A DNA stretch of 64,000 nucleotides from a virus. This document shows, piece by piece, positions 1-47,638 of the stretch. How positions within the stretch are numbered: the stretch's first letter is position 1; each line of letters begins with the position of its first letter. The notes under the pieces are model-generated. The model did not search any database. It was not told the origin of the DNA and saw nothing but the letters and a program-made list of their open reading frames with translations. The stretch is taken from positions 34,392-98,391 of IMG/VR virus record IMGVR_UViG_3300044475_000063; one strand, 5' to 3'. The position numbers were made by a program, and so were the translations under genes.

Positions 1-56
1 TGAATACACTATCTAACCCACCCAGCGCCTTCGGGCGCTACCTGAAAGGATGAATC

Positions 57-266
57 ATGTTTGATGATTACGAAGACGAGCCAGAAGCAAAGCGTATTTT
101 TGATATGGCCGATCAGTTGGATGATCGATTGGATGATTATGCGCTTGAGCGCTGCAAATCGTCGGAGCACGTTATACGCGGTGGCAATCATGGGCGCGTG
201 TACACCTTTCACGATGGGAGCAAACTGACCACGGCTGAAACTGGCTATGTTGGTTGCGAATACTGA
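57..266 (+). CDS. hypothetical acidic protein (69 aa)
   Basis: ORF behind an AAGGA RBS. Homologous reading frame at 50205..50414. Confidence 0.5.
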   Translation: MFDDYEDEPEAKRIFDMADQLDDRLDDYALERCKSSEHVIRGGNHGRVYTFHDGSKLTTAETGYVGCEY

Positions 267-340
267 TTGACCGGCCCGCTAGACGGGCCTAAGCCACTAG
301 AACCTAGCGCAATGGTGCGCTGGTATATTAAGGAGGAAGT

Positions 341-529
341 ATGGATTGGCAGCCTATTGAAGTTTATGACGCGCTCAAAGTTAAGCCAAAAATGGCGGTG
401 TTTCGATTTGAACCAGTTCCAAGCAAAAATGGTCGGGGCTTGTCTTTGCCGGAGCATTTTGAAATGAAAAGGACTTTCGGCTCTCGTGTCTGCACCCATT
501 TCGTTGAGCTTCCACAGATTCAAAAATAG
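341..529 (+). CDS. hypothetical protein (62 aa)
   Basis: Strong RBS AAGGAGGAAGT before the ATG. Unit 2 has an unrelated ORF (50489..50779) behind the same RBS. Confidence 0.5.
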   Translation: MDWQPIEVYDALKVKPKMAVFRFEPVPSKNGRGLSLPEHFEMKRTFGSRVCTHFVELPQIQK

Positions 530-580
530 CACCTAGCAACCAGCAGTAGAATAAACCAAGTTCACTAAGCGGAGGCTGTC

Positions 581-769
581 ATGATTAGTATCGGTCAGAT
601 GGTGCGTGTTCTGAATTCGGATAATGTGTGTCGTCTTGAATCATGGGAGCGCGATGCTATCCATATGATTCATTCTAAGTCTGTAAATGGGCTGCGGCAG
701 AATCTGCTAGACCTCCGCGAGTGCCAACTTATCATCACTATTTTTAACAGGGTATATCAAAATGCGTAA
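581..769 (+). CDS. hypothetical protein (62 aa)
   Basis: GGAGG RBS. Conserved homolog at 51007..51195, including the shared C-terminal ITIFNRVYQNA. Confidence 0.6.
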   Translation: MISIGQMVRVLNSDNVCRLESWERDAIHMIHSKSVNGLRQNLLDLRECQLIITIFNRVYQNA

Positions 770-860
770 ATTGAATTGGGGATTAATCATCGCGCTTCTC
801 ACTTGCGTGATTATCTGGACTGCTTTTGGCGTGCGTATGTACAGGTACTATCATGGCTAA
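762..860 (+). CDS. 32-aa single-pass membrane micropeptide (MRKLNWGLIIALLTCVIIWTAFGVRMYRYYHG)
   Basis: Below the ORF-track size cutoff. It overlaps the stop of the upstream gene and the start of the downstream gene. Conserved at 51188..51286. Confidence 0.4.
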   Translation: MRKLNWGLIIALLTCVIIWTAFGVRMYRYYHG

Positions 861-1062
861 GATCGGACGACCATCGCACCTTGAAGCAGTAGCTTCTGCG
901 CTTCCTGGCACTCGCAACCAGATCGCCAAGCGAGTAGGAATCAGCGCAGCTTGTGTAGGCCGCTTGCTGCGCGTTCTGGAAGCGAATCGGGCGGTTTATG
1001 TGGTTACGCATGCCGTTCCGAAATGCGGTCCTAAAATGCCTGTATTCGCTTTGAGGCGCTAA
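853..1062 (+). CDS. winged-helix/HTH DNA-binding protein (69 aa from MAKIGRP)
   Basis: The segment NQIAKRVGISAACVGRLLRVLE looks like an HTH. Homolog at 51484..51705. Confidence 0.6.
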   Translation: MAKIGRPSHLEAVASALPGTRNQIAKRVGISAACVGRLLRVLEANRAVYVVTHAVPKCGPKMPVFALRR

Positions 1063-1452
1063 ATGGACCGCGTTGAAATGATCCTCAAGGCCATGCCAGC
1101 AACGCGCCTTGAGATTCAGCTACAAACGCGCATGGGCAAAAGCACGGTGCAGCATATCATTGAGCGATTGCATGAGCGCGGTTGGATTCACATCAGCGGC
1201 TGGGAGCGTATCCTCAAGAACGGAACGGGCAAGTTCGTCATGCGATATAAAGCAGGTCAAGGCACTGACAAGCCCTGCAAGCTGGAACCAATGCCCCGCG
1301 CCGAGCTTGAAAAGCGCCGCCGCAAAAAGCTTCTCAAGACCGGCGAAATAGAAGAACGCAACAAGCGCAACCTCATGCGGTACTACGAGAAGCGAGCAAA
1401 GGAAAAATCCAAGGCAAAGCCTCAAACGTGGCTTTCTGCGCTTGGTGTGTGA
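1063..1452 (+). CDS. winged-helix DNA-binding protein with a basic K/R-rich tail
   Basis: The segment LEIQLQTRMGKSTVQHIIERLHERGWI looks like a wHTH. Homolog at 51698..52111. Confidence 0.6.
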   Translation: MDRVEMILKAMPATRLEIQLQTRMGKSTVQHIIERLHERGWIHISGWERILKNGTGKFVMRYKAGQGTDKPCKLEPMPRAELEKRRRKKLLKTGEIEERNKRNLMRYYEKRAKEKSKAKPQTWLSALGV

Positions 1453-1460
1453 AAAACCTC

Positions 1461-1489
1461 TTGCAATTGGGTTTTTGCTGACCTAGAAT
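1461..1489 (+). promoter_or_regulatory. sigma70-like promoter (TTGCAA-17 nt-TAGAAT)
   Basis: -35 TTGCAA at 1461..1466, exact 17-nt spacer, -10 TAGAAT at 1484..1489. Lies directly after the stop of 1063..1452. Confidence 0.4.
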
Positions 1490-1512
1490 TCTAACTGTCA
1501 ACGCCTGCCAGC

Positions 1513-1657
1513 GAAGACGAAAAAGAAAATGACTCTGTAGCAGCCCCAAGGTTTTTTGGTGGATCGCAAAATGGAGTGTGGACGTAACAGAGTCCGTTCA
1601 CACTTCAGGTTGGCAGACCCGATCCACCAAAGCATCTTGGGGCTTTTTTTCGTCTGC
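1513..1657 (+). ncRNA. candidate ~150-nt small RNA: long compound hairpin ending in a T7 tract
   Basis: GCCCCAAG (1543..1550) pairs with CTTGGGGC (1636..1643). TTTGGTGGATC (1555..1565) pairs with GATCCACCAAA (1621..1631). AGACGAAAAAG (1515..1525) pairs with the T-tract region 1643..1655. The candidate promoter lies just upstream. Confidence 0.35.
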
Positions 1658-1880
1658 ACTGTCTGAATTGACTAGCCTATCGTCGGGAACGAAAGCAACA
1701 GGGCGATAGCGTGAATACTGGAACTGTGGCAAAGCAAGGGAAGCACCAGAATGAGGCGTCGAAGATAGCACCTCACTTGCGCAAGGCTGTCGGGTCAGCG
1801 ATTCCTCAATGGATACGTTGTGATGGGCCTTAGCTAAGTCTAGGTCCGCTCAAACCTCTTGGATAATACGAAAGATAAGA

Positions 1881-2579
1881 ATGAACCTGATGCTTGTAAA
1901 TACTAAAGAACAGACCATGACAAGCAAGGAAATGGCTGAGCTTACAGAAAAGCGCCATGACAGCGTCAAACGGACCATTGAAAACCTTGCTTCTACTGGC
2001 GTGATCGGCCAACCACAAATTGTGGATGGAGAAAAAGCAGGCAACAACGTTGTTGAAAAGCTATATTTGTTTGGGAAGCGTGACAGCTATGTGATCGTTG
2101 CCCAGCTTTCGCCGCTGTTCACTGCCCGACTTGTAGACCGCTGGCAAGAGTTGGAATCCCGAGAATCCTCGGTAGATGGCTTTGAGATTCCCAAGACTTT
2201 TGCAGAGGCATTGCGGCTTGCTGCTGACCAGCAAGAGACGATTGCAAAACAGGCCTTGCAGATTGAGACGAATGCGCCAAAGGTTGCATTTGCCGAAGCA
2301 ATTCGCGCCACTGAGGGCGTTTGCAGCGTTGAGAAGATCGCAAAAACGCTTGGCTGGGGGCGTAACAAGTTTTTCGACAGGCTGCGCACTGATGGCATTC
2401 TGATGGCTAACAACCTGCCATATCAGAAGTACATTGACCGCGAGTATTTCACCGTCATTGAGCAGGAACCATACACGGATAGTAAAGGAGTCGTGCACCC
2501 TACGTTCACGACTCGTGTAACGGGCGCTGGACAGGTGTTCCTTGCCAAAAAGTATGCAAACATCATGGGTGTAGTATGA
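1881..2579 (+). CDS. phage antirepressor (Rha-type N-terminus plus KilAC/ANT-type C-terminus)
   Basis: N-terminal TSKEMAELTEKRHDSVKRTIENL is Rha-like. The central AFAEAIRATEGVCSVEKIAKTLGWGRNKFFDRLRTDGILM is KilAC-like. Confidence 0.7.
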   Translation: MNLMLVNTKEQTMTSKEMAELTEKRHDSVKRTIENLASTGVIGQPQIVDGEKAGNNVVEKLYLFGKRDSYVIVAQLSPLFTARLVDRWQELESRESSVDGFEIPKTFAEALRLAADQQETIAKQALQIETNAPKVAFAEAIRATEGVCSVEKIAKTLGWGRNKFFDRLRTDGILMANNLPYQKYIDREYFTVIEQEPYTDSKGVVHPTFTTRVTGAGQVFLAKKYANIMGVV

Positions 2580-2881
2580 CTACATTGCCTGATTGGATTC
2601 CTGCCGATGCGTGGGCCGGATACGTTGAAATGCGCAAGAAAAAGCGCGCCGTGATGACTGAGCGCGCTACCGAGCTACGCATTAAAGACCTTGCCAAGCT
2701 GCGCGATGCAGGGCAAGACGTAGGCGCGGTCTTAGATCAATCGACTGCGAACGGCTGGACTGATGTGTATCCGGTGAAAGAGCGCCGTGTCGAGCCGCGC
2801 AACCAGTTCGACACTTCGCGCCTTGGAAAGCACGGGCAGGCTACCGCAAATAACGCACTTGATTGGTTGGAGGGGAAATGA
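2576..2881 (+). CDS. hypothetical protein (101 aa)
   Basis: ATGA stop/start overlap with the upstream gene. Lies in the replication module. Confidence 0.5.
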   Translation: MTTLPDWIPADAWAGYVEMRKKKRAVMTERATELRIKDLAKLRDAGQDVGAVLDQSTANGWTDVYPVKERRVEPRNQFDTSRLGKHGQATANNALDWLEGK

Positions 2882-3042
2882 AATACATAATTATTTATAG
2901 CGATGGCTGTTACGAAAAAGCGGGTAGAGGAACTGGTTTTCCCACTACTGAAAAAGATGAGGCAAAAGTTTTTGATTCTGAAGATGATGCTCATGAATAT
3001 TGCGCGTGGTTGATAGAGGCAAAAGTTATTCCGTTGAAATAA
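2878..3042 (+). CDS. hypothetical small protein (54 aa, MKYIIIYSDG...)
   Basis: Not in the ORF track because it is under 60 aa. ATGA overlap with the upstream stop. It exactly fills the gap to 3044. Confidence 0.35.
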   Translation: MKYIIIYSDGCYEKAGRGTGFPTTEKDEAKVFDSEDDAHEYCAWLIEAKVIPLK

Positions 3043-3043
3043 T

Positions 3044-3676
3044 ATGATTGATAATCTAGAAGAAAAGCGCCGCTTCGCCTCGCTCATGACTGCCCTTGCT
3101 GACTATTACGAGAAGTCGCTTTCTAAAGGTGTCCTGTCTCTCTATTGGGAAGGGCTGCGCCAGTATGACTATGAGGCAATCGAAAAGGCCGCATGGGCGC
3201 ATACGCAACTACCAGACGAGGCGGGGCGCTGGATGCCCAAGGTCAGCGACCTAAACAAGATGCTGGCGGGGCGCACCTCTGACCAAGGGCAGAGTGCATG
3301 GAGCAAGGTTGATCGCGCCGTGCGCACCATTGGCCCTTATAGCGACGTTGCTTTTGACGATCCGATTATCCACCGAGTTATTCAGGAAATGGGCGGCTGG
3401 ATTCATCTTTGCGGACAAGACGAGAAACAATGGCCTTTCACAGCAAAAGAATTTGTTACGCGCTACCAGTCATACAAAATGACCGGTGATATTCCAGAAC
3501 ATGCGGGCTATTTGACAGGAATCGCCTCATCGCAAAATGAGCATTCAGGTAATAAACAAAAGCGCGAGATTCATTTAATAGGCGATAAACAAAAAGCAAT
3601 CGAATTAATCCTTGGCGAGAAAAAGAAAGTCGAATCGCTAGGTTTATCAGTTCCAAAAGCAGCAGACGCTATTTAA
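3044..3676 (+). CDS. replication-module protein (function unknown)
   Basis: Positional counterpart of 53557..54204, which follows the replication-initiator-like gene in unit 2; clear similarity is limited to the shared C-terminal VPKAADAI, which also ends 54201..54395. Confidence 0.5.
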   Translation: MIDNLEEKRRFASLMTALADYYEKSLSKGVLSLYWEGLRQYDYEAIEKAAWAHTQLPDEAGRWMPKVSDLNKMLAGRTSDQGQSAWSKVDRAVRTIGPYSDVAFDDPIIHRVIQEMGGWIHLCGQDEKQWPFTAKEFVTRYQSYKMTGDIPEHAGYLTGIASSQNEHSGNKQKREIHLIGDKQKAIELILGEKKKVESLGLSVPKAADAI

Positions 3677-3688
3677 AAGGAGAAGGAA

Positions 3689-3889
3689 GTGAAGAAAAAC
3701 GAATACCCTTATTTGCAAATTATTGTTCACCACGGTCCGACAAATTCAACATCGATAACTGGCGATGAAGGAGTTATTGCTGCTGGGGTTTCATATCTTC
3801 CTCGGTCAATGCAAAACAAACTTAAGGTGGAAACAATCAAGCGCTGGTCACGATTCATTAAAAGCAAATCAAAAGGAGAAGGAAAATGA
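3689..3889 (+). CDS. hypothetical protein (66 aa, GTG start)
   Basis: AAGGAGAAGGAA RBS before the GTG. Confidence 0.4.
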   Translation: MKKNEYPYLQIIVHHGPTNSTSITGDEGVIAAGVSYLPRSMQNKLKVETIKRWSRFIKSKSKGEGK

Positions 3890-4080
3890 AGAAATCTCGT
3901 CTTGCATCAGCAATCAAAGAAGCAAAGCGGTTTTTAGAAATTGCAGAAACCGTAGAAATTGATCCGGACAGCCGTAATGATTACATCTACAGAAGCAAAG
4001 AATCGGCATCTGTTCGCCGCGCTAGTATGGATTTGACTAATGCACTTGTTGAATTGCGTAAAGGAGATTACACAAAATGA
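3886..4080 (+). CDS. hypothetical protein (64 aa)
   Basis: AAGGAGAAGGAAA RBS. Overlapping stop/start. Confidence 0.5.
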   Translation: MKKSRLASAIKEAKRFLEIAETVEIDPDSRNDYIYRSKESASVRRASMDLTNALVELRKGDYTK

Positions 4081-4310
4081 GCAAAGCGAAATTAACCGAC
4101 TGGTTCCCTGCTGATGTTAAGCCGGTGCATGTGGGTGTGTATGAGGTTCTTTATGAGAATGGCTGCTTTGGTAGCCGATATCGATACTGGAATGGCGTTC
4201 GGTTTTGCTATCAATGTATGAATTCTCAGAAAGCTTTTCAAAAAAGGAACAATCACACTGGGCTTGACGCCTTTGTATCTTGGCGCGGCATCGCTGAAAA
4301 ACCAAACTAA
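4077..4310 (+). CDS. hypothetical protein (77 aa, WFPADVKPVHVGVYE motif)
   Basis: Conserved homolog at 54409..54642. Confidence 0.6.
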   Translation: MSKAKLTDWFPADVKPVHVGVYEVLYENGCFGSRYRYWNGVRFCYQCMNSQKAFQKRNNHTGLDAFVSWRGIAEKPN

Positions 4311-4322
4311 AGGAGAATCACA

Positions 4323-4697
4323 ATGTACACTTCTGGCCGACTGATATACCAAGAGGATAGTGATGTATATACGCACATACTTCGTGATGTGACGGGCAAT
4401 CGCATCATACATCAAGGTCCGCAGGATTCTCGCGGTGAGGCTGAGGCAAATGCGCGAAGGCTTGCCGCATGTTGGAACGTTTGCGATGGGCTTGAAACTG
4501 CTGACCTTGAGGTAGGTGCGACGCTTGGAGATATTTGCGCCGATAGAAACGGCCTTGTAATCAAACTAGGTAAAGCGCAAGAAAAACTAGACATGGCCCG
4601 ATCTATGCTGGAAGAGGCTTTAGATACATTTGACGACAACCCAGCAGAGGGCCATGAAATTGCAGACCGTATCCGTAGCTTTTTGGAGGTTAAATGA
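4323..4697 (+). CDS. hypothetical protein (124 aa)
   Basis: AAGGAG RBS. Packed in the operon. Confidence 0.5.
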   Translation: MYTSGRLIYQEDSDVYTHILRDVTGNRIIHQGPQDSRGEAEANARRLAACWNVCDGLETADLEVGATLGDICADRNGLVIKLGKAQEKLDMARSMLEEALDTFDDNPAEGHEIADRIRSFLEVK

Positions 4698-5044
4698 GCA
4701 ATGCAGAACTATTGACTCTGGCAGCTAATGCCGCAGGATTGAAAGTCTTTAGCGTTACTCATCGTGGCATGGGTGGCTACAGTGACGATACTTTGCTCGG
4801 CTTGATTATTGCGGATAGCGTTGGAACTCTATGGAATCCGCTAGAGAATGATTCTCAGGCGCTGCGCTTGGCGGTTGATTTGGGATTGCGATTGACACTG
4901 CCTAAATACAAAGGATTTGGCACGACTGCCGATCATCAGGCGGATGGTATTGCTGGTTGCACGGCTTTCCGAGATGACCCAATGGCGCAGACGCGAGAGG
5001 CTATTGTGCGCGCTGCCGCCGAAAAAGGAAGGGCTATGCAATGA
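4694..5044 (+). CDS. hypothetical protein (116 aa)
   Basis: Overlapping stop/start with both neighbours. Confidence 0.5.
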   Translation: MSNAELLTLAANAAGLKVFSVTHRGMGGYSDDTLLGLIIADSVGTLWNPLENDSQALRLAVDLGLRLTLPKYKGFGTTADHQADGIAGCTAFRDDPMAQTREAIVRAAAEKGRAMQ

Positions 5045-5463
5045 AGGTTAAATCTTCCCGATTAATGGGTGTTAATGATATCGACGATTTGTTCAAGGCC
5101 AAGGCGCGCTTGATGCCTGATGATGTGAGCGAGATTCAGCTTAGGGTGCTTCTGGCGCTCGATTCGGCCAAGCGCTCACGCTGCCCACCAGGCCTCGCAA
5201 ACCTGCTTATCAAGCACATGGTCATGGCTGCTGCAATCGGTAGCCAGATGCGAGACCAAAGCTTCTACAATCTGGCGCAAAGGGCCTATGAGGCGCTTTA
5301 CAACGCTTGCATGCGAGATACGGTGGACCTTGATCTAACAACCGGCGAGTACAGCGTAATCAAGCGAACGATTGCGCTATACTTGAACCATCTGCCTAAA
5401 GTCGAGCGCGGCTTGTTTGAGTTTGCAAGCAATCATGCTCAGAAAGTTTTAGCGCAAGGTTAA
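5041..5463 (+). CDS. hypothetical protein (140 aa)
   Basis: Highly conserved homolog at 54951..55373. Confidence 0.65.
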   Translation: MKVKSSRLMGVNDIDDLFKAKARLMPDDVSEIQLRVLLALDSAKRSRCPPGLANLLIKHMVMAAAIGSQMRDQSFYNLAQRAYEALYNACMRDTVDLDLTTGEYSVIKRTIALYLNHLPKVERGLFEFASNHAQKVLAQG

Positions 5464-5499
5464 AAATAGCGGCTAATTTAATAATTAGCCGCTATTTTT
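5463..5499. terminator. bidirectional intrinsic terminator
   Basis: 13-bp perfect stem ATAGCGGCTAATT/AATTAGCCGCTAT flanked by an A-run and a T-run. Sits between convergent genes. Confidence 0.65.
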
Positions 5500-6009
5500 C
5501 TATATTTCTATATCAGCCCAGCTTTTCCCAAGTTTTATCATGCTTACGGTCGAATGGTGAACATTGAAGAGTTTTCCTAGCTCTTTGTTCGACATTCTAA
5601 TCATAGAGGCTAGCTTTATATATCTAGCCTCTTCTTTGGTTAAGATTGATCTAGGATTCAACTCGCCAAAAATAGGTCGGCATGGCGATCTGCCTTTTGA
5701 AACCATATCATTTGAATTGTCTTGTGCAGTACCAAGAAAAAGATGATTTGGGTTGGTACAGATAGGGTTATCACATTTATGGCATACCATAAAATCACCC
5801 GGCTCTATACCAAAATGCAAAGCATAAGAAATTCTATGCGCGAATACAGATTGTCCGCGCTTGCCAACATGGGCAAGCCTCGCGTATCCCTTTTTGTCTA
5901 CGAAACCATTCCAAGACCAGCAATTGTCTTGCTTGACAACCTTTGACAGGTATCTCTGTTCTATTTTTGACAGAGGATCATTGATAAGAGGTAAAATAAG
6001 AATAGCCAT
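5500..6009 (-). CDS. HNH homing endonuclease (169 aa from MAILIL)
   Basis: The motif CHKCDNPICTNPNHLFLGTAQDNSNDM is an HNH core, and there is a C-terminal HTH-like module. Absent from the equivalent position in unit 2. Confidence 0.8.
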   Translation of the reverse strand: MAILILPLINDPLSKIEQRYLSKVVKQDNCWSWNGFVDKKGYARLAHVGKRGQSVFAHRISYALHFGIEPGDFMVCHKCDNPICTNPNHLFLGTAQDNSNDMVSKGRSPCRPIFGELNPRSILTKEEARYIKLASMIRMSNKELGKLFNVHHSTVSMIKLGKSWADIEI

Positions 6010-6102
6010 GAAGACTCCATGAAAGTCATTTGTGGTTAAAAGCCAACACGTGTGCAACCACTGTTGGCTTTGTCATTCTAACTCAGATACAATGAATTTG
6101 TC

Positions 6103-6178
6103 GCGGGGATAGCTCAGTTGGTAGAGTCTCTGATTTCCAATCAGATTGTCGTCGGTTCAAGCCCGATTCCCCGCTCCA
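6103..6178 (+). tRNA. tRNA-Gly (anticodon UCC), CCA encoded
   Basis: Manual cloverleaf: acceptor GCGGGGA/TCCCCGC, D stem GCTC/GAGT, anticodon stem TCTGA/TCAGA, loop TTTCCAA, T arm GTCGG-TTCAAGC-CCGAT, then T-CCA. Confidence 0.85.
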
Positions 6179-6631
6179 AGAATTAGCGAAGGCAGATAGC
6201 CATGAACAAAAGCGCGTGCGCAAGTAGTCATGCTGGCATACTGGAAGTAGCTAAAGCAAAGCCGCTAATGCGTTATTAGGAATTGCGCCACACAGTTCGG
6301 AAACTGCGGCATGTGGCAAGAATAGTTGGTCCGATACCGCAGGGGCGCTCGGGACAATAAACGCCCCAGCATAAGCGCCGCCCTCCTTTCCCCAGCTATC
6401 GCTAGTGGGCGCAACAAGTAATTAGGCGTGATTATGCAGAGCCAAGTACAAGGGCGCAGAGCGTGGAAGCCGCTAGTTGTTTGTCTCGCAAGAGACGCCA
6501 CATAAAACCAGCCCGTGACGCCCTATTGCAGGGCATATGAGCGAACGAAGTAAGGGCGGCAGTCTTTGCATCTTAGTAGGCCAAGGAAACGTTGGTTGGT
6601 TTTATGTGGTGCAATGCTCGGGGATTTTTTT
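6179..6631 (+). ncRNA. 453-nt ORF-free structured RNA (short form of the late-operon leader RNA)
   Basis: Starts directly after the tRNA CCA and ends in a T7 tract (6625..6631). Multiple helices: 6182..6188/6263..6269, 6287..6317, 6342..6347/6362..6367, a GNRA hairpin at 6483..6496, and 6498..6510/6597..6609. Blocks are conserved with unit 2 but carry 1-nt indels. Confidence 0.55.
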
Positions 6632-6695
6632 GTCTATTGCCTATCTAGAGTAGAATGTCAAGACAGAATTCACCATCACAGATTCAAGGCAAAAC

Positions 6696-7118
6696 ATGGC
6701 ACTTACTCCAAAGCAAGCACTATTCGTCAAAGAATACCTAATCGACCTGAATGCAACTCAGGCCGCGATTCGTGCTGGTTATTCGGAAAAGACGGCTTAC
6801 TCTATTGGTGAAGAAAACCTGAAGAAGCCTGAAATTGCAGAGGCGATTGCCGAGCATCAACAGGCCAAGGCAAAGAAGCTAGATATCACTGTTGATACGA
6901 TACTTGCGGAGCTTGAGGAAGCGCGTCAATTGGCTCTAGAAACTGGTAAGGCTGGCCCAGCAGTTCAGGCTTCGATGGGTAAGGCAAAGATTTTAGGTTT
7001 GGAAAAGCAAGTCATCGATCATACATCTAGCGATGGCACTATGACGCCTAAAGCGCCTATCGTTGTTGACAAGGATACTGCTGCGCAGGTGGCGGCGAAT
7101 ATCAATGGTGGCATCTGA
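6696..7118 (+). CDS. terS: terminase small subunit
   Basis: The N-terminus LTPKQALFVKEYLIDLNATQAAIRAGYSEKTAYSIGEENLKKPEI is a classic Terminase_2/P27-type TerS signature. It lies directly upstream of TerL. Confidence 0.85.
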   Translation: MALTPKQALFVKEYLIDLNATQAAIRAGYSEKTAYSIGEENLKKPEIAEAIAEHQQAKAKKLDITVDTILAELEEARQLALETGKAGPAVQASMGKAKILGLEKQVIDHTSSDGTMTPKAPIVVDKDTAAQVAANINGGI

Positions 7119-34220: not shown

Positions 34221-34708
34221 TTTCTATCATCGCCCAATACAAGCGATGGTTTGAGATAGGCACTATTGCGCTGGTGATTATTGGCGCATTGTGGGGCTTT
34301 CATGCTTTCTCGGAAAGGCAGCGCGAGATAGGCAGAAACGAGATTCGCTTAGAATGGCGTGAGGCCGAAGTTAAGCGCATAGAGGCTGAAAACAAACTAT
34401 TGGCCGTACAAAATGCGGCTCGTGATATAGCAAACAAAGAAGGACAAGAACGTGAAAAAGCTATCAATAATGCTTTTGCCGCTAACAGCGCTGCTCTTGT
34501 CAGCCTGCGCGGCACAATCTCAAACCAGCAGGCCCAGCTTGCCACCGCCAATATCGAAACCCTCCGTCGATATTCCAGCACAGCCAGCGCCGTATTTGCA
34601 GAATGCGCAGCAGAATATAGCGAAATGGCAAAAGAAGCTGCAAGAGGCTATAACGCCGCCAGAACGCTAGATCAAGCTTGGCCTACTTCTCCTGCCGAAG
34701 CAAAATAG
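34217..34708 (+). CDS. Rz: i-spanin (Rz-like)
   Basis: N-terminal TM segment, coiled-coil periplasmic domain, and an embedded lipoprotein ORF. Confidence 0.75.
   Translation: MISIIAQYKRWFEIGTIALVIIGALWGFHAFSERQREIGRNEIRLEWREAEVKRIEAENKLLAVQNAARDIANKEGQEREKAINNAFAANSAALVSLRGTISNQQAQLATANIETLRRYSSTASAVFAECAAEYSEMAKEAARGYNAARTLDQAWPTSPAEAK
34452..34670 (+). CDS. Rz1: o-spanin (Rz1-like lipoprotein), fully embedded in Rz in another frame
   Basis: Signal peptide with lipobox LLSAC and a Pro-rich mature region. Confidence 0.7.
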   Translation: MKKLSIMLLPLTALLLSACAAQSQTSRPSLPPPISKPSVDIPAQPAPYLQNAQQNIAKWQKKLQEAITPPER

Positions 34709-39044: not shown

Positions 39045-40547
39045 TTATTCCGCTGGCTTGGCGGCGAGAGCGCGGATAGCCATTGCCTGTTCGGTGAAGG
39101 TCACGATGCCTTGATCGGCCTGATAGTCCTCGATAGTACGCGCCGCTTCCTCAATCCCGGCAGCGCGGCCCTTGGCGAACGCCTCGTCGCGTTCAGCCAT
39201 CAGCCCGTGCGTTACCTTGCAGGCTTGCTCATTGGCGCGACGCATGCCTGCCTCGAATGCCTGGCTCAGCGCATCGCCCTGTGCGACAGGTGGCACCTTC
39301 CATGCCAGCGTGTACTTGCCGCATGCGCTTTGTTGCGCTTTCATCATCTCGCCAGGCTTAATATTTACGGGGATTACCCCGGTAACGAAGTTGCCATTGC
39401 TATCTGGCCAGCCACCATTTTCGGCAACGTGGATTTCTACACCGGCCGGTGGCGCATCACCCTGACAAGCACCAGCGTCAACCGCTTTCTGCTTCCAGTA
39501 TTTGATTTCCGCCCTGGCGTCCGAAAGCCGTAGATCGGCCAGCGCATCACCCTGCGCGGTGGATGACTGGGCGGAAAACTTCGACACAACGGCTGCTGCT
39601 GCGTGAATAGCGCCGTTGAACGCAAAGCGCTTGTCCGGCGTCATCGAAGGATCAGGCTTTATCGCCAACACAGCGGCGTGAATAGCCTTCGCATCTACTG
39701 GTGCTACATCTGCCTTCGCTTTCAGCCGCTCAATCTCCCGGCGCACGATGCCCAGCGCGGCGAACTCGTACCCTGTCAGATCGCCATCCGGCACACACGA
39801 TTGCAGGCCCAGCAGGTCAACGATGCTGCGCAGGCGCGCGGTGGCGTCGACGTCCCAGGCTGGCGCTGTCTCAGTCTCGCCCCCGGTAAAGTCGGCCGGC
39901 TCCCACATGCCGGGGAGTTCTTCGGCTGGCGCTGCATCTGCTGGGGGATGGGCGGCTTCCAGTTCCCATTCACCGTACATGCCGCCTGTTCCGTTTTCAC
40001 CAACCACGTTGTAAGGTTTAGTTTGGTCAGGGTAGATGCGTTGAATCACCCCTTCTCGCTTAAAACTATCCGTGGTTATTACTCGATCCCCGGCAGAGAA
40101 CTTCATAGCAACACCTGCCTGCTTGGAGGATGCTGTCACATCAGCGGCTACAGGCGCGGCGGCTGGCTGTGGGGAGGCGACAGTGAGAATCTGACTAGGG
40201 ACAACCTGAGACGATGAAGTATCTCCGTCTGCGCGCACTTGATAAAAAATGTGCGGTCGCTTGTCCTTGCTCCAACGGGTTTCAGATTTCGTGATGATGC
40301 CGCCGTAAATGTGGCCAAACTCGTTGCGTACCTCTACCCTGTCTCCCTTATAAAATGATGGAATTCCTTCCGGCACCGCCACTGTCGGCACGCTGGCTAC
40401 TGGCGCGGACTGGCGGGTGGCGGCGATGGCGCGGGCGAACGCTCGGTAGTTCTCGACGCCGCCCAGCGCTGCATACGGCTCAGCAATCACATCGATCTGC
40501 TCGTCGCTCAGCCCTTGAATGTCTTTGTTCGTTTCCATGGTGGTCAT
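39045..40547 (-). CDS. large hypothetical protein (500 aa) with two KOW/SH3-like GDRV segments
   Basis: Longest ORF of the leftward operon. Contains MWEPADFTGGET and a C-terminal ...AMAIRALAAKP module similar to that of 40730..41473. Confidence 0.65.
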   Translation of the reverse strand: MTTMETNKDIQGLSDEQIDVIAEPYAALGGVENYRAFARAIAATRQSAPVASVPTVAVPEGIPSFYKGDRVEVRNEFGHIYGGIITKSETRWSKDKRPHIFYQVRADGDTSSSQVVPSQILTVASPQPAAAPVAADVTASSKQAGVAMKFSAGDRVITTDSFKREGVIQRIYPDQTKPYNVVGENGTGGMYGEWELEAAHPPADAAPAEELPGMWEPADFTGGETETAPAWDVDATARLRSIVDLLGLQSCVPDGDLTGYEFAALGIVRREIERLKAKADVAPVDAKAIHAAVLAIKPDPSMTPDKRFAFNGAIHAAAAVVSKFSAQSSTAQGDALADLRLSDARAEIKYWKQKAVDAGACQGDAPPAGVEIHVAENGGWPDSNGNFVTGVIPVNIKPGEMMKAQQSACGKYTLAWKVPPVAQGDALSQAFEAGMRRANEQACKVTHGLMAERDEAFAKGRAAGIEEAARTIEDYQADQGIVTFTEQAMAIRALAAKPAE

Positions 40548-44709: not shown

Positions 44710-45298
44710 GGTTTCTCCGTGATGGGTAGTGTAAGGAGGGGATTTTCACCCCATTCCTTTTTAAGCGTGGTCGCTGTATGCAATAACTCTGGCGGGACGT
44801 TGTTTATCCTGAGTCTACTCAGAACCCGTCTTTGCATCTTCGATTCTGACCATATCGACCATGGGCATGTGCGCGTTCATGCTAGCGTGTGGTGGCCGGT
44901 GCTGATATCCGGCATTGGGCGTCTTATCCACGTTTCCCCATCCTTACTACCCAGCGTTTGGAACCCTGGTTGACAAGTAAGCGCATCAGCTTGCGCATTC
45001 ACCACATCGAAACGGGCTAGGGCTTGATACCTAGCTAATCGTATGTCGGTCATACGACTACCAACCAGTTGCGGAACCCCTTTTTAACGAGTCGGTTAAG
45101 CCTCTTTTGTCGCCTTCAGGTTGGTTAAGCACCCTAAGCTCCGTTTCCGCCGACCTTGCTTAGCACGTCCTTCCGTGCTGCCGTTTCGATGTGGTTCCTA
45201 GCACTTACGCGGCTAGGTTACGATACTAGGAATTAATCCCTTGTCCTAGTAGCTTGCTAGATTCTTTCGCCGTTCTTGGCTCTAGCGGGCCAAAAGGA
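44710..45298 (-). ncRNA. 589-nt ORF-free structured leader in the leftward early operon (contains module M at 45002..45194)
   Basis: No minus-strand ORF here. A 14-bp closing helix CCACATCGAAACGG/CCGTTTCGATGTGG, internal hairpins, and two sequence blocks identical to 57136..57154 and 57225..57245. Confidence 0.45.
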
Positions 45299-46413: not shown

Positions 46414-46751
46414 TGGGCAATGCAATCCGTTTTGGAATACTTGGCGATGCTGGCTTGTCGCCCGTTATCGGTGAAGAATTTGAAATTGATGGAACCAAAG
46501 AACAATTTGCTGTTCACCCTTCTACCTATCGTGAGCGCGTTGAATTAGATTTCCTTTGGTGCGCAACTCATGTTGAAACAGGACTTCGCATTGCAAAAGG
46601 AAATGATATCGATGAGGTTATTGAATTAGCGCGAGTGGCATGGAAAGATAAAACGCCTGAGCAAATCGAGTCTGCACTGGTTAATGGCCGCGCCATGCGA
46701 CGCCAAGCATTTCTTCAAAATCTAGATATATCTGACTTATGTAATGACTGA
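46413..46751 (+). CDS. hypothetical protein (112 aa)
   Basis: Operon packing. Confidence 0.5.
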   Translation: MGNAIRFGILGDAGLSPVIGEEFEIDGTKEQFAVHPSTYRERVELDFLWCATHVETGLRIAKGNDIDEVIELARVAWKDKTPEQIESALVNGRAMRRQAFLQNLDISDLCND

Positions 46752-46811
46752 TATTCCCCACGTAATGCCAATCAAAGACTTTGAGCGCATCAAGGCGCAG
46801 GAGGAAAAGAA

Positions 46812-47231
46812 ATGAAAATCGAACTGACCAAAATAGCAGAAGTTGAAGTCTCGGCGCTGGAAGTTGAAGCGGAAGTACGTTATTGGGAAGATGCTTCAAT
46901 TGATGGCGTAGAAGATACCGAAGGCAAGATTCCTCTGCGCGATGGCGATTGCTGGCGTCCAATCATCAATCTGGCGACAGGCTTTATCAAAGACTGGCCG
47001 CAAGGCGTAACAGCCAATGTTCATTACAAGGTCTGCGACCAAGGGCAATACTGGTTGCTGGATGAGGAAGGAAGGCGCGTAGCCAAGTGGAAGGGTTACT
47101 ATGTCCCTGACAGCCTCCTATGCCCGAATGGTAACGGCTACGGCGATTACATCATTCTCCAAATCGAGCAAGACGGCCATATCAATAGCTGGCGCTCTGC
47201 AATCGATAGCGAAGAATGGGAGGCGGTATGA
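46812..47231 (+). CDS. hypothetical protein (139 aa)
   Basis: GGAGGAAAAGAA RBS. Confidence 0.55.
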   Translation: MKIELTKIAEVEVSALEVEAEVRYWEDASIDGVEDTEGKIPLRDGDCWRPIINLATGFIKDWPQGVTANVHYKVCDQGQYWLLDEEGRRVAKWKGYYVPDSLLCPNGNGYGDYIILQIEQDGHINSWRSAIDSEEWEAV

Positions 47232-47638
47232 CCATCAACCTAACCCAAATCCGCAGCGACTTCGATAACGGCATCATCGTAAGCAAGCAGACTTTGCTTG
47301 CTCTGGTGGATTATGCGATTGAGTTGGAAGGCAAGCCAATCACGCGGCAAGAGTATTGCAGCGAGCGCCCAGCGCGGTTTGTAGTATGTGCCGCCAATAA
47401 ATACGGCGATCTTGTTTTTACCGGCGTGCGGCATTTCTGTCCCGTTATGCAGGTCAATATGCAAGCCTACGATATTCCGGCGCTTCGCAAAGAGCGCGGC
47501 GAGGTGCAGGGCTTCATCGACCAGTTTGGCGTGTTCATGACACGCGAGGAGGCGGCAATCGTGGCAAAAGAATCGGGGCAGCTTGCGCGTTATGGCAATC
47601 ATTGCCCAACCGTTTTGTTTAGCGAGGACTTGTACTGA
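47228..47638 (+). CDS. hypothetical protein (136 aa from MTINLTQ)
   Basis: ATGA overlap with the upstream stop. Confidence 0.5.
   Translation: MTINLTQIRSDFDNGIIVSKQTLLALVDYAIELEGKPITRQEYCSERPARFVVCAANKYGDLVFTGVRHFCPVMQVNMQAYDIPALRKERGEVQGFIDQFGVFMTREEAAIVAKESGQLARYGNHCPTVLFSEDLY

Follow-up and report, generated by a model that had tools for sequence, protein, structure and literature searches.

Nucleotides 6179 to 6631, the segment considered here, belong to a 64,000-nucleotide (nt) stretch of viral DNA (the window; positions 34,392 to 98,391 of IMG/VR record IMGVR_UViG_3300044475_000063) that contains a tandem pair of prophage-like units, related to each other and mosaic. In unit 1, early-right genes (1-6000) are followed by the gene for the terminase small subunit (terS, 6696) and by late genes up to ~34.7 kb; in unit 2, leftward early genes (~34.9-45.8 kb) come first, and the unit has its own terS at 57786. 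The segment lies between a tRNA-Gly(UCC) gene and terS of unit 1 and consists of two blocks, A and B, that recur in unit 2, followed by a domain private to unit 1. It was found to be non-coding, conserved, modular and linked to tRNA genes, and block A carries compensatory changes. The features of this RNA island and the second copies of the blocks are listed below. L223 is a contig from a sister phage, one of six fetched contexts of homologs of the 140-amino-acid (aa) protein gene upstream of the island, and its protein is 89% identical.

6064 to 6093, plus strand: promoter-like site TTGGCT-18-TACAAT, a consensus match 10 nt upstream of tRNA-Gly
6103 to 6178, plus strand: tRNA-Gly(UCC), first gene of the island (ARAGORN; Rfam tRNA 65.4 bits)
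6177 to 6186, plus strand: linker motif CAAGAAUUAG at the tRNA/A junction, present also as CAAGAAUAG at 6317-6325, the A/B junction
6179 to 6253, plus strand: 5' half of block A (A core), with predicted hairpin GGC/GCC, stem AUGA/UCAU with an AGUA internal loop, and hairpin GCG-N4-CGC
6254 to 6324, plus strand: 3' half of block A, with predicted hairpin GCCACACAGUU-CGGA-AACUG..UGUGGC (6287-6317); 94% identical to unit 2, 93% to L223 3009-3079
6321 to 6365, plus strand: 5' part of block B, predicted hairpin GGGGCG-loop-CGCCCC, common to unit 2 only
6366 to 6502, plus strand: core of block B, 95.7% identical to unit 2 and 89% to L223 3277-3412
6496 to 6612, plus strand: long-helix domain private to unit 1 (13 bp perfect, ~20 bp in the fold)
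6606 to 6617, plus strand: tail motif GUGGUGCAAUGC, found in the window only at 6606 (plus), 57429 (plus) and 44995 (minus)
6620 to 6695, plus strand: U7 run (6625-6631) and upstream region of terS, 94% identical to L223 4563-4640
6696 to 7118, plus strand: terS of unit 1 (Pfam Terminase_2, 8.5e-28), the first late gene past the island
56144 to 56288, plus strand: block A, unit-2 copy (alignment, self-BLAST)
56761 to 56945, plus strand: block B, unit-2 copy (alignment, self-BLAST), with a tRNA-Met-like gene 7 nt later

The two copies of each block were compared by self-BLAST of the window. Block A (6171-6324) matched 56136-56288 with 94.2% identity over 154 nt (E 1e-61) and block B (6320-6502) matched 56761-56943 with 95.7% identity over 184 nt (E 1e-78), in agreement with a preliminary description that had put both above 90% by eye. 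They are among the best-kept stretches between the units; flanking coding segments are 74-86% identical. The alignments contained all of the 1-nt, frame-breaking indels reported there (GTACAAGG versus GT-TAAGG, and TAGTTG-TTTG versus TAGTAGTTTTG), plus a loop indel in block A (CGGA versus CAA). Both of the substitutions said to preserve pairing were also recovered: A6267 to G turns a U-A pair into U.G in ATTAGCG/CGCTAAT, and C6317 to T turns G-C into G.U in GCCACA/TGTGGC. Unit 2 has ~470 nt inserted between A and B and ~770 nt after B, as had been noted, and nucleotides 6498-6510 of unit 1 (CCACATAAAACCA) are the exact reverse complement of 6597-6609 (TGGTTTTATGTGG), the 13-bp helix proposed to close the private domain. 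The block correspondence stood, but its start had to be moved: conservation begins at 6171, inside the 3' end of tRNA-Gly, and not at 6179. This sharp edge can be placed at the tRNA 3' end because tRNA-Gly(UCC) adjoins A in both units (6103-6178 and 56070-56143) yet the two tRNA genes are quite different.

The segment is non-coding. It contains no open reading frame (ORF) longer than 81 aa, and its copies are separated by the frame-breaking indels. A concatenated six-frame query returned nothing resembling any frame among 5.8 billion predicted proteins, and a full HMMER search with a 78-aa minus-strand ORF returned nothing meaningful from 1.84 billion representatives. The RNA reading of the preliminary description held in this respect: ORFs, indels and the two protein searches gave no protein-coding signal across A and B on either strand, and no gene-like ORF with homologs, kept in frame between the copies, was found.

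Relatives of the blocks were few. BLASTN against GenBank phages and PLSDB plasmids and exact 23- and 25-mers in IMG/VR gave no homolog of A or B, an 18-mer in GTDB genomes gave chance matches only, and degenerate A patterns run over IMG/VR and the JGI metagenomes returned L158/L180 alone. L158 (= L180) is an unrelated viral contig that had been fetched for its copy of T core, another RNA element described below. It carries the 5' half of A at 688-765 (minus strand; ~70% identity, nhmmer E=3e-5) between T core and an odd 105-nt tRNA, with tRNA-Gly(UCC) 450 nt downstream and no B. Alignment of further homologs and a covariance model had been proposed in the preliminary description; a model of A core scored the L158 copy at 77.9 bits, with compensatory changes, and found no members beyond L158/L180, bar one weak match (39283-39354, minus strand; 18.7 bits, E=0.01). 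The latter lies inside a 500-aa ORF, has ~18 nt in common (AAAGCGCAUGCG-CAAGUA) and is probably due to chance. A look-alike of B (GGGNCAAUAA...CUCCUUUCCC) upstream of tRNAs in L168 and L221 was also set aside (nhmmer E ~1, different structural context).

The L223 contig has a 2-kb ORF-free island behind its homolog of the 140-aa gene, ending at a Terminase_2 terS. The order within it is two tRNA-Leu genes, tRNA-Tyr, the 3' half of A (93%), the B core (89%), T core, a beta_tmRNA (a form of transfer-messenger RNA, tmRNA) and a terminator. The terminator is the same as in unit 2, and the terS leader the same as in unit 1; the 5' half of A and the 5' hairpin of B are missing. Because L158 holds the 5' half of A alone and L223 the B core with no more of A than its 3' half, the blocks are separable, and A and B are each mosaics of two pieces that occur independently, in islands whose borders are fixed and whose content varies. 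Conservation in other related phages, on which the preliminary description had staked its reading, was largely wanting: none of the 96 loci that surround relatives of the two large terminases contained either block, and tRNAs were almost absent from them; of six relatives of the 140-aa gene that were fetched, five lacked the blocks, the sixth being L223.

The additional sequence of unit 2 was found to contain further RNA elements. The order there is tRNA-Arg, tRNA-Gly, A, a tRNA/tmRNA-like element ending in CCA, 240 unassigned nt, B, a tRNA-Met-like gene, T core, tRNA-Ile and the terminator. The preliminary description had taken the extra sequence for domains gained or lost around the conserved core of a large RNA; the unit-2 inserts are instead separate, discrete RNA genes, and this part of it is unsupported. 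The element at 56290-56518 (plus strand) has a 7-bp acceptor stem with G3:U70, a T arm GGGUUCAAUUCCC, a discriminator A and a 3' CCA. ARAGORN, with introns allowed, read it as a tRNA with a 132-nt insert. Rfam tmRNA aligned its two ends at 25.6 bits, below the gathering score; this match (56399-56518) has only 71 nt between the two ends. The element could be a miniature tmRNA or a decoy of the tRNA-like domain. A putative tag-like frame was read by eye at 56383-56406 (GCA GAA GCA CCU AUA GCG GCC UGA, AEAPIAA*).

The tRNA-Met(CAU)-like gene (56952-57024, plus strand), 7 nt after B, was missed by ARAGORN at its default and accepted at 90-95% of the threshold, at which no other extra call was made in the 64 kb. 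It has three extra bases between T arm and acceptor stem and scored 16.6 bits with Rfam tRNA. The tRNA-Ile gene (57584-57661, plus strand) has the unusual anticodon AAU and, in the Rfam alignment, two mismatched acceptor pairs. The L223 beta_tmRNA (3958-4420, just upstream of terS) is a full two-piece, permuted molecule by its Rfam match (148 bits), with a tag read by ARAGORN as ANDAQFKVAAYA*. Maturation of tRNAs requires RNase P and 3' processing at the tRNA ends. A would be severed from B in unit 2, because maturing the tRNAs between them cuts both ends.

That block A is a structured RNA is reasonably supported by comparison of its copies. Relative to L158, the A core shows GGC/GCC changed to GUC/GAC and AUGA/UCAU changed to CCUGA/UCAGG, and the hairpin GCG-CAUG-CGC keeps its stem in L158 and has a new loop. 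None of the 8 differences between units 1 and 2 breaks the unit-1 minimum free energy (MFE) fold (p ~0.004), and one of 8 does so on the unit-2 fold (p ~0.03). For the 3' half of A, L223 shows 5 differences, every one of them unpaired; compensatory changes, two double changes against L158, were seen in the 5' half only.

For block B a structured RNA is plausible but unproven. The predicted consensus fold of the B core has a helix GCAUAAGCGCC/GGCGUGAUUAUGC around the hairpin CCCCAGCU/AGUGGG, two more hairpins and a GNRA hairpin GUCUC-GCAA-GAGAC at 6483-6496; CCUCCUUUCCCC at 6382-6393 is predicted to be single-stranded. Across the three sequences the 33 core pairs never vary and the ~20 differences lie in loops and junctions, a pattern that is partly circular, the fold having been derived from the same alignment on which it was scored. 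The tetraloop changes from GCAA to GGAA, that is from GNRA to GNRA. In L223 the 5' hairpin is replaced by a different one, with two aligned pairs changed from G-C to U-A; these two, both in the replaced hairpin, are the only double changes, and 49 of 500 shuffles reach the observed score.

Neither A nor B matched an Rfam family at gathering score or E<=10, neither matched Rfam tRNA at E<=10, and the Rfam tmRNA models had no match in 6179-6631. ARAGORN called a tRNA in A only once its threshold was relaxed to -ps80/85, settings at which ~34 calls per 64 kb arise from shuffled sequence, and this reading was discarded as noise. A likeness of A to 4.5S/SRP RNA, seen by eye, was dropped since the Rfam SRP models gave no match. 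The region of the private domain (6490-6640) folds better than shuffles (z = -2.68).

Taken together, 6179-6631 is a real, non-coding feature, probably one at the RNA level. On balance, and with moderate confidence, we favour the interpretation that it is the trailer of tRNA-Gly and the shortest version of a recombining island of tRNAs and small RNAs, placed between a promoter-like site and the terminase genes and built of cassettes. The cassettes would be the 5' half of A, the 3' half of A, the 5' hairpin of B, the B core and the long-helix domain, which related phages keep, lose or swap amid genes for tRNAs, tRNA-like elements, tmRNA and T core. The term leader RNA used in the preliminary description is apt for the position, between the promoter-like site and terS on the strand of the tRNA, and does not extend to one large leader RNA. 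Equivalent promoter-like sites were found in unit 2 and L223 (TTGACT/TTGACA-17-CATCAT/CATGAT). The U-run of unit 1 is the same as one in L223 that is preceded by a canonical hairpin; unit 2 has that hairpin and unit 1 does not, and it appears to have been lost there. All three copies of the tail GUGGUGCAAUGC lie within RNA islands, in the transcribed orientation.

We infer that A and B are transcribed, processed, stable and active in trans, in the following way. The whole island would be transcribed as one precursor, from the promoter upstream of tRNA-Gly(UCC) into the terminase genes. Host RNase P would cut this precursor at the 5' end of each tRNA or tRNA-like gene, and the 3' side of each tRNA would be cut by RNase E or trimmed, with the CAAGAAU(U)AG linkers as plausible sites. 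A and B would be freed as small stable RNAs that may act in trans in lysogeny or infection; RNA C and RNA D of phage T4, together with GOLLD and ROOL, serve as the nearest precedents. The single lead to a target is the CCUCCUUUCCCC stretch of B, predicted to be unpaired, for which purine-rich, Shine-Dalgarno-like sequences are conceivable partners. Of the five occurrences of CAAGAAT[AT]?AG in the window, four are at module junctions (6177, 6317, 56142 and 56523), and the motif seems to resemble the A/U-rich sites at which RNase E separates tRNA precursors. Its counterpart in L158, GCAAGAGU, is instead one strand of an 8-bp helix that closes the A-like domain.

Several observations weigh against this interpretation, and most of them would fit a largely neutral origin, in which A and B are spacer or trailer DNA of a tRNA operon that co-circulating phages recently exchanged by recombination, kept alike by its youth rather than by any use, and at most the 5' half of A is functional. 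The promoter of unit 1 was recognised only by its consensus. The family is very rare: among the loci fetched and the pattern scans, it comprises the two window units and L223, with the A core also in L158/L180, and the blocks are missing from the 96 terminase-related loci and from five of six relatives of the 140-aa gene. Identities of 93-98% between the units are also reached by a few other patches of the mosaic, coding ones included, and the 89-96% identity of the blocks equals that of other mosaic patches between these phages; much of the conservation could therefore be due to recent exchange alone. The MFE of A and the folding energy of B are no better than those of shuffles (z = +0.88 and z = +1.10, respectively), and when the L223 sequence was read, no partner could be seen for the helix predicted to close A (AUUAGCG/CGCUAAU). 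In addition to the circularity of its fold, B has no divergent homolog that we could find, its three single-sequence MFE folds disagree, and its substitution tests gave p = 0.02 to 0.56. Against neutrality, in three phages the patches have their borders at those of RNA genes and hairpins, the 5' half of A is ~70% identical in an unrelated contig with compensatory changes, and the L223 differences cluster in loops and junctions with stems intact and GCAA replaced by GGAA. We consider a largely neutral origin unlikely.

The preliminary description proposed that A, B and the private domain form one large leader RNA that tolerates insertions, in the manner of GOLLD, and that the short and long forms do the same job. 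The order A then B is the same in units 1 and 2, and in L223 the 3' half of A precedes the B core; A and B directly abut in unit 1. GOLLD (RF01998) and ROOL (RF03087), carried by phages and prophages, often occur near tRNA islands, and tRNAs sometimes lie in the GOLLD linker (PMC12286853; PMC5737381), a variable stretch between conserved halves (PMC12286853), which resembles unit 2 with its tRNA-like genes between A and B. The location is also GOLLD-like, in a phage near tRNA genes: tRNA-Gly is directly 5' of the blocks, and tRNAs flank them in unit 2 and L223. However, the intervening elements are complete genes with ends of their own (3' CCA, cloverleaf), whose maturation would cut such an RNA. 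The 5' half of A stands without B in L158, and L223 lacks both the 5' half of A and the 5' hairpin of B. No need for long-range pairing between A and B was found, each block closing on itself in the folds. Over 6000-6750 and 55800-57800, GOLLD gave no match at gathering score or E<=10 and ROOL none at E<=10. Furthermore, A and B measure 140-180 nt, compared with 580-800+ nt for GOLLD and ROOL, and are found separately and in pieces, without sign of one large fold. A single large RNA is distinctly improbable.

A signal at the DNA level just upstream of terS, either a pac/cos packaging site or an array bound by a late-gene regulator, is highly improbable. The blocks lie in the islands immediately upstream of terS in all three phages, and four direct GCCGCA repeats (57721, 57734, 57744 and 57753; 57721-57758, plus strand), which may be a binding array for terminase or a regulator, lie in unit 2 past the island terminator and ahead of the terS start. 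However, both the small and the large terminases are unrelated between the units (the small subunit is Pfam Terminase_2 in unit 1 and a helix-turn-helix (HTH)-type protein in unit 2), which makes a shared pac/cos site unlikely. In unit 2, 840 nt with several RNA genes separate B from terS, no repeat array was read inside A or B, and the 5' half of A in L158 is not beside a terminase.

A small protein gene is hardly credible: two small ORFs survive in both copies, a plus-strand ORF for a 31-aa basic peptide (6326-6421) that is intact in both units and a minus-strand ORF (MLGRLL..., start 6372) behind AAGGAGG-N9-ATG, its strong Shine-Dalgarno-like GGGGAAAGGAGG 9 nt before the ATG being kept in both units, but every nucleotide difference in either ORF alters the amino acid, the C-termini of the minus-strand product differ completely between units (the unit-2 insertion falls inside it), L223 has replaced the 5' part encoding the rest of either peptide, and both protein-universe searches were without a homolog.

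T core shares its islands with pieces of A and B in unit 2, L223 and L158, and A and B have no similarity to it. It consists of an invariant 5' hairpin GCACG-GAAGGA-CGUGC, a variable arm, a 3' hairpin GCNGG-UAUCAAG-CCNGC (also with (U/A)AUCAAG) and a long closing helix. Copies were found at 57124-57256 (plus strand) and ~45003-45194 (minus strand, in the leftward early operon of unit 2), so that unit 2 has two copies in two different operons, and in L112-L170, L222 and L223 (3655-3823). The 19-mer GGCAGCACGGAAGGACGTG from the unit-2 tail occurs in 59 IMG/VR contigs. The best complement to the 10 nt upstream of this motif was sought over the next 520 nt with its location unconstrained, and in ~42 of the 59 loci it fell directly after the 3' hairpin. 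In an alignment of 27 sequences 10 of 11 pairs of the closing helix have double changes and 90% of cells pair, compared with 26-40% for slid partners. Complementarity was one of the grounds on which the 3' segments were picked, which inflates these pair counts and leaves the position result unaffected. The variable arm holds a whole tRNA in L118, L125 and L138, tRNAs often adjoin T core, and several copies lie upstream of terS. T core is not in Rfam, and by these comparisons it appears to be a widespread, strongly covarying, uncatalogued phage RNA family. A role as a riboswitch-like element coupled to a terminator was rejected, as a terminator follows within 150 nt in 4 of 45 copies and precedes in 3 of 45.

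Two further observations concern T core. L222 is Iodobacter phage phiPLPE (NC_011142), where an unannotated 800-nt non-coding genome end (~46,640-47,453) contains a variant with a 17-bp closing helix, a covarying 5' hairpin GCGUG-GAUGGA-CACGC and an internal T-arm-like hairpin. Many T cores are followed by a companion module, GGUG(A/C)AAUGC and then a hairpin whose stem covaries (GCGCA/UGCGC versus GCGGA/UCCGC); it was seen at 57429-57456 (plus), 44995-44960 (minus) and in L113 and L122, and unit 1 has only its 5' GUGGUGCAAUGC part at 6606-6617. The private domain of unit 1 (6496-6612) is like T core in its long closing helix (CCACAU.../...AUGUGG) and its tail GUGGUG(A/C)AAUGC, but lacks both T-core hairpins.

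Other known systems offer partial parallels. RNA C and RNA D of phage T4 are small stable RNAs from the T4 tRNA region with no known role (PMC3014915). Like these, A and B are non-coding and lie among phage tRNA genes on the same strand; the genomic logic is alike, and a sequence relationship is not expected. T4, a virulent myovirus, has a single, fixed cluster, whereas A and B are cassettes shuffled between temperate phages in the leader of a late operon.

The island occupies the position of the lambdoid late leader (P_R'-t_R'), after the last gene of the regulatory region and before the late genes. All three islands have promoter-like sites, and those of unit 2 and L223 also have a strong intrinsic terminator of canonical form, which unit 1 lacks; the upstream 140-aa protein, in contrast to the lambdoid arrangement, matches no Q family. 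In Stx phages tRNA genes lie downstream of P_R', a tRNA cargo as in this island. In E. coli, as reportedly described by Lalaouna and colleagues in 2015, 3'ETS-leuZ is released by RNase E from the spacer/trailer of a tRNA operon and serves as a sponge for small RNAs. The same processing route is proposed for A and B, with the differences that cleavage at their linkers is inferred and that 3'ETS-leuZ is ~50 nt long.

The genes around the island were also considered. The 140-aa protein genes (5041-5463 and 54951-55373, plus strand) are 83% identical between the units, and the gene stands directly upstream of the island promoter in three phages, a position that suggests a late-gene regulator. Beyond the absence of a Q family, no other Pfam or PHROG family matched the protein, and just 10 homologs were found among 5.8 billion proteins. 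Between this gene and the RNA island of unit 1 lies a gene for an HNH_3-type homing endonuclease (5500-6057, minus strand), which looks like a free-standing insertion because it is present in unit 1 only.

The portal protein is <40% identical to that of any GenBank phage. The Betaproteobacteria-1 RNA at 1675-1795 and the betaproteobacterial two-piece tmRNA of the sister phage L223 point to a betaproteobacterial host. The former (RF02932; plus strand, unit 1) scored 57.2 bits against a gathering score of 49.4 and is placed between an HTH-like gene and an anti-repressor (Ant/KilAC) gene; no copy was found in unit 2. In the public short-read Logan assemblies SRR35899580 and SRR35908198 (L097-L100), which contain the same two phages, contigs end exactly at the RNA island. 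Such breaks are expected for blocks repeated between two co-resident prophages, and islands of this kind will therefore be under-represented in assembled data.

Phage tRNA clusters have long been known to hide unexplained small RNAs, and GOLLD and ROOL are structures without a function. The present locus is a compact natural experiment on this theme, with three phages that have the same promoter, terminator and terminase borders and different cassette sets. A and B alone are rare and modest; the island context, with T core and the two-piece tmRNA, is the more promising object. We raise as a speculation, and regard as unlikely, that A, B, T core, the CCA-ending tRNA/tmRNA mimic and the two-piece tmRNA belong to one undescribed toolkit of small, structured, recombining RNAs, which betaproteobacterial temperate phages would carry beside tRNAs in their late-operon leaders. 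If so, the toolkit would act on host translation or the tRNA machinery, for example through B offering the anti-Shine-Dalgarno-like CCUCCUUUCCCC or through a tRNA-like domain competing for SmpB or AlaRS, and unit 1 would hold the minimal kit.

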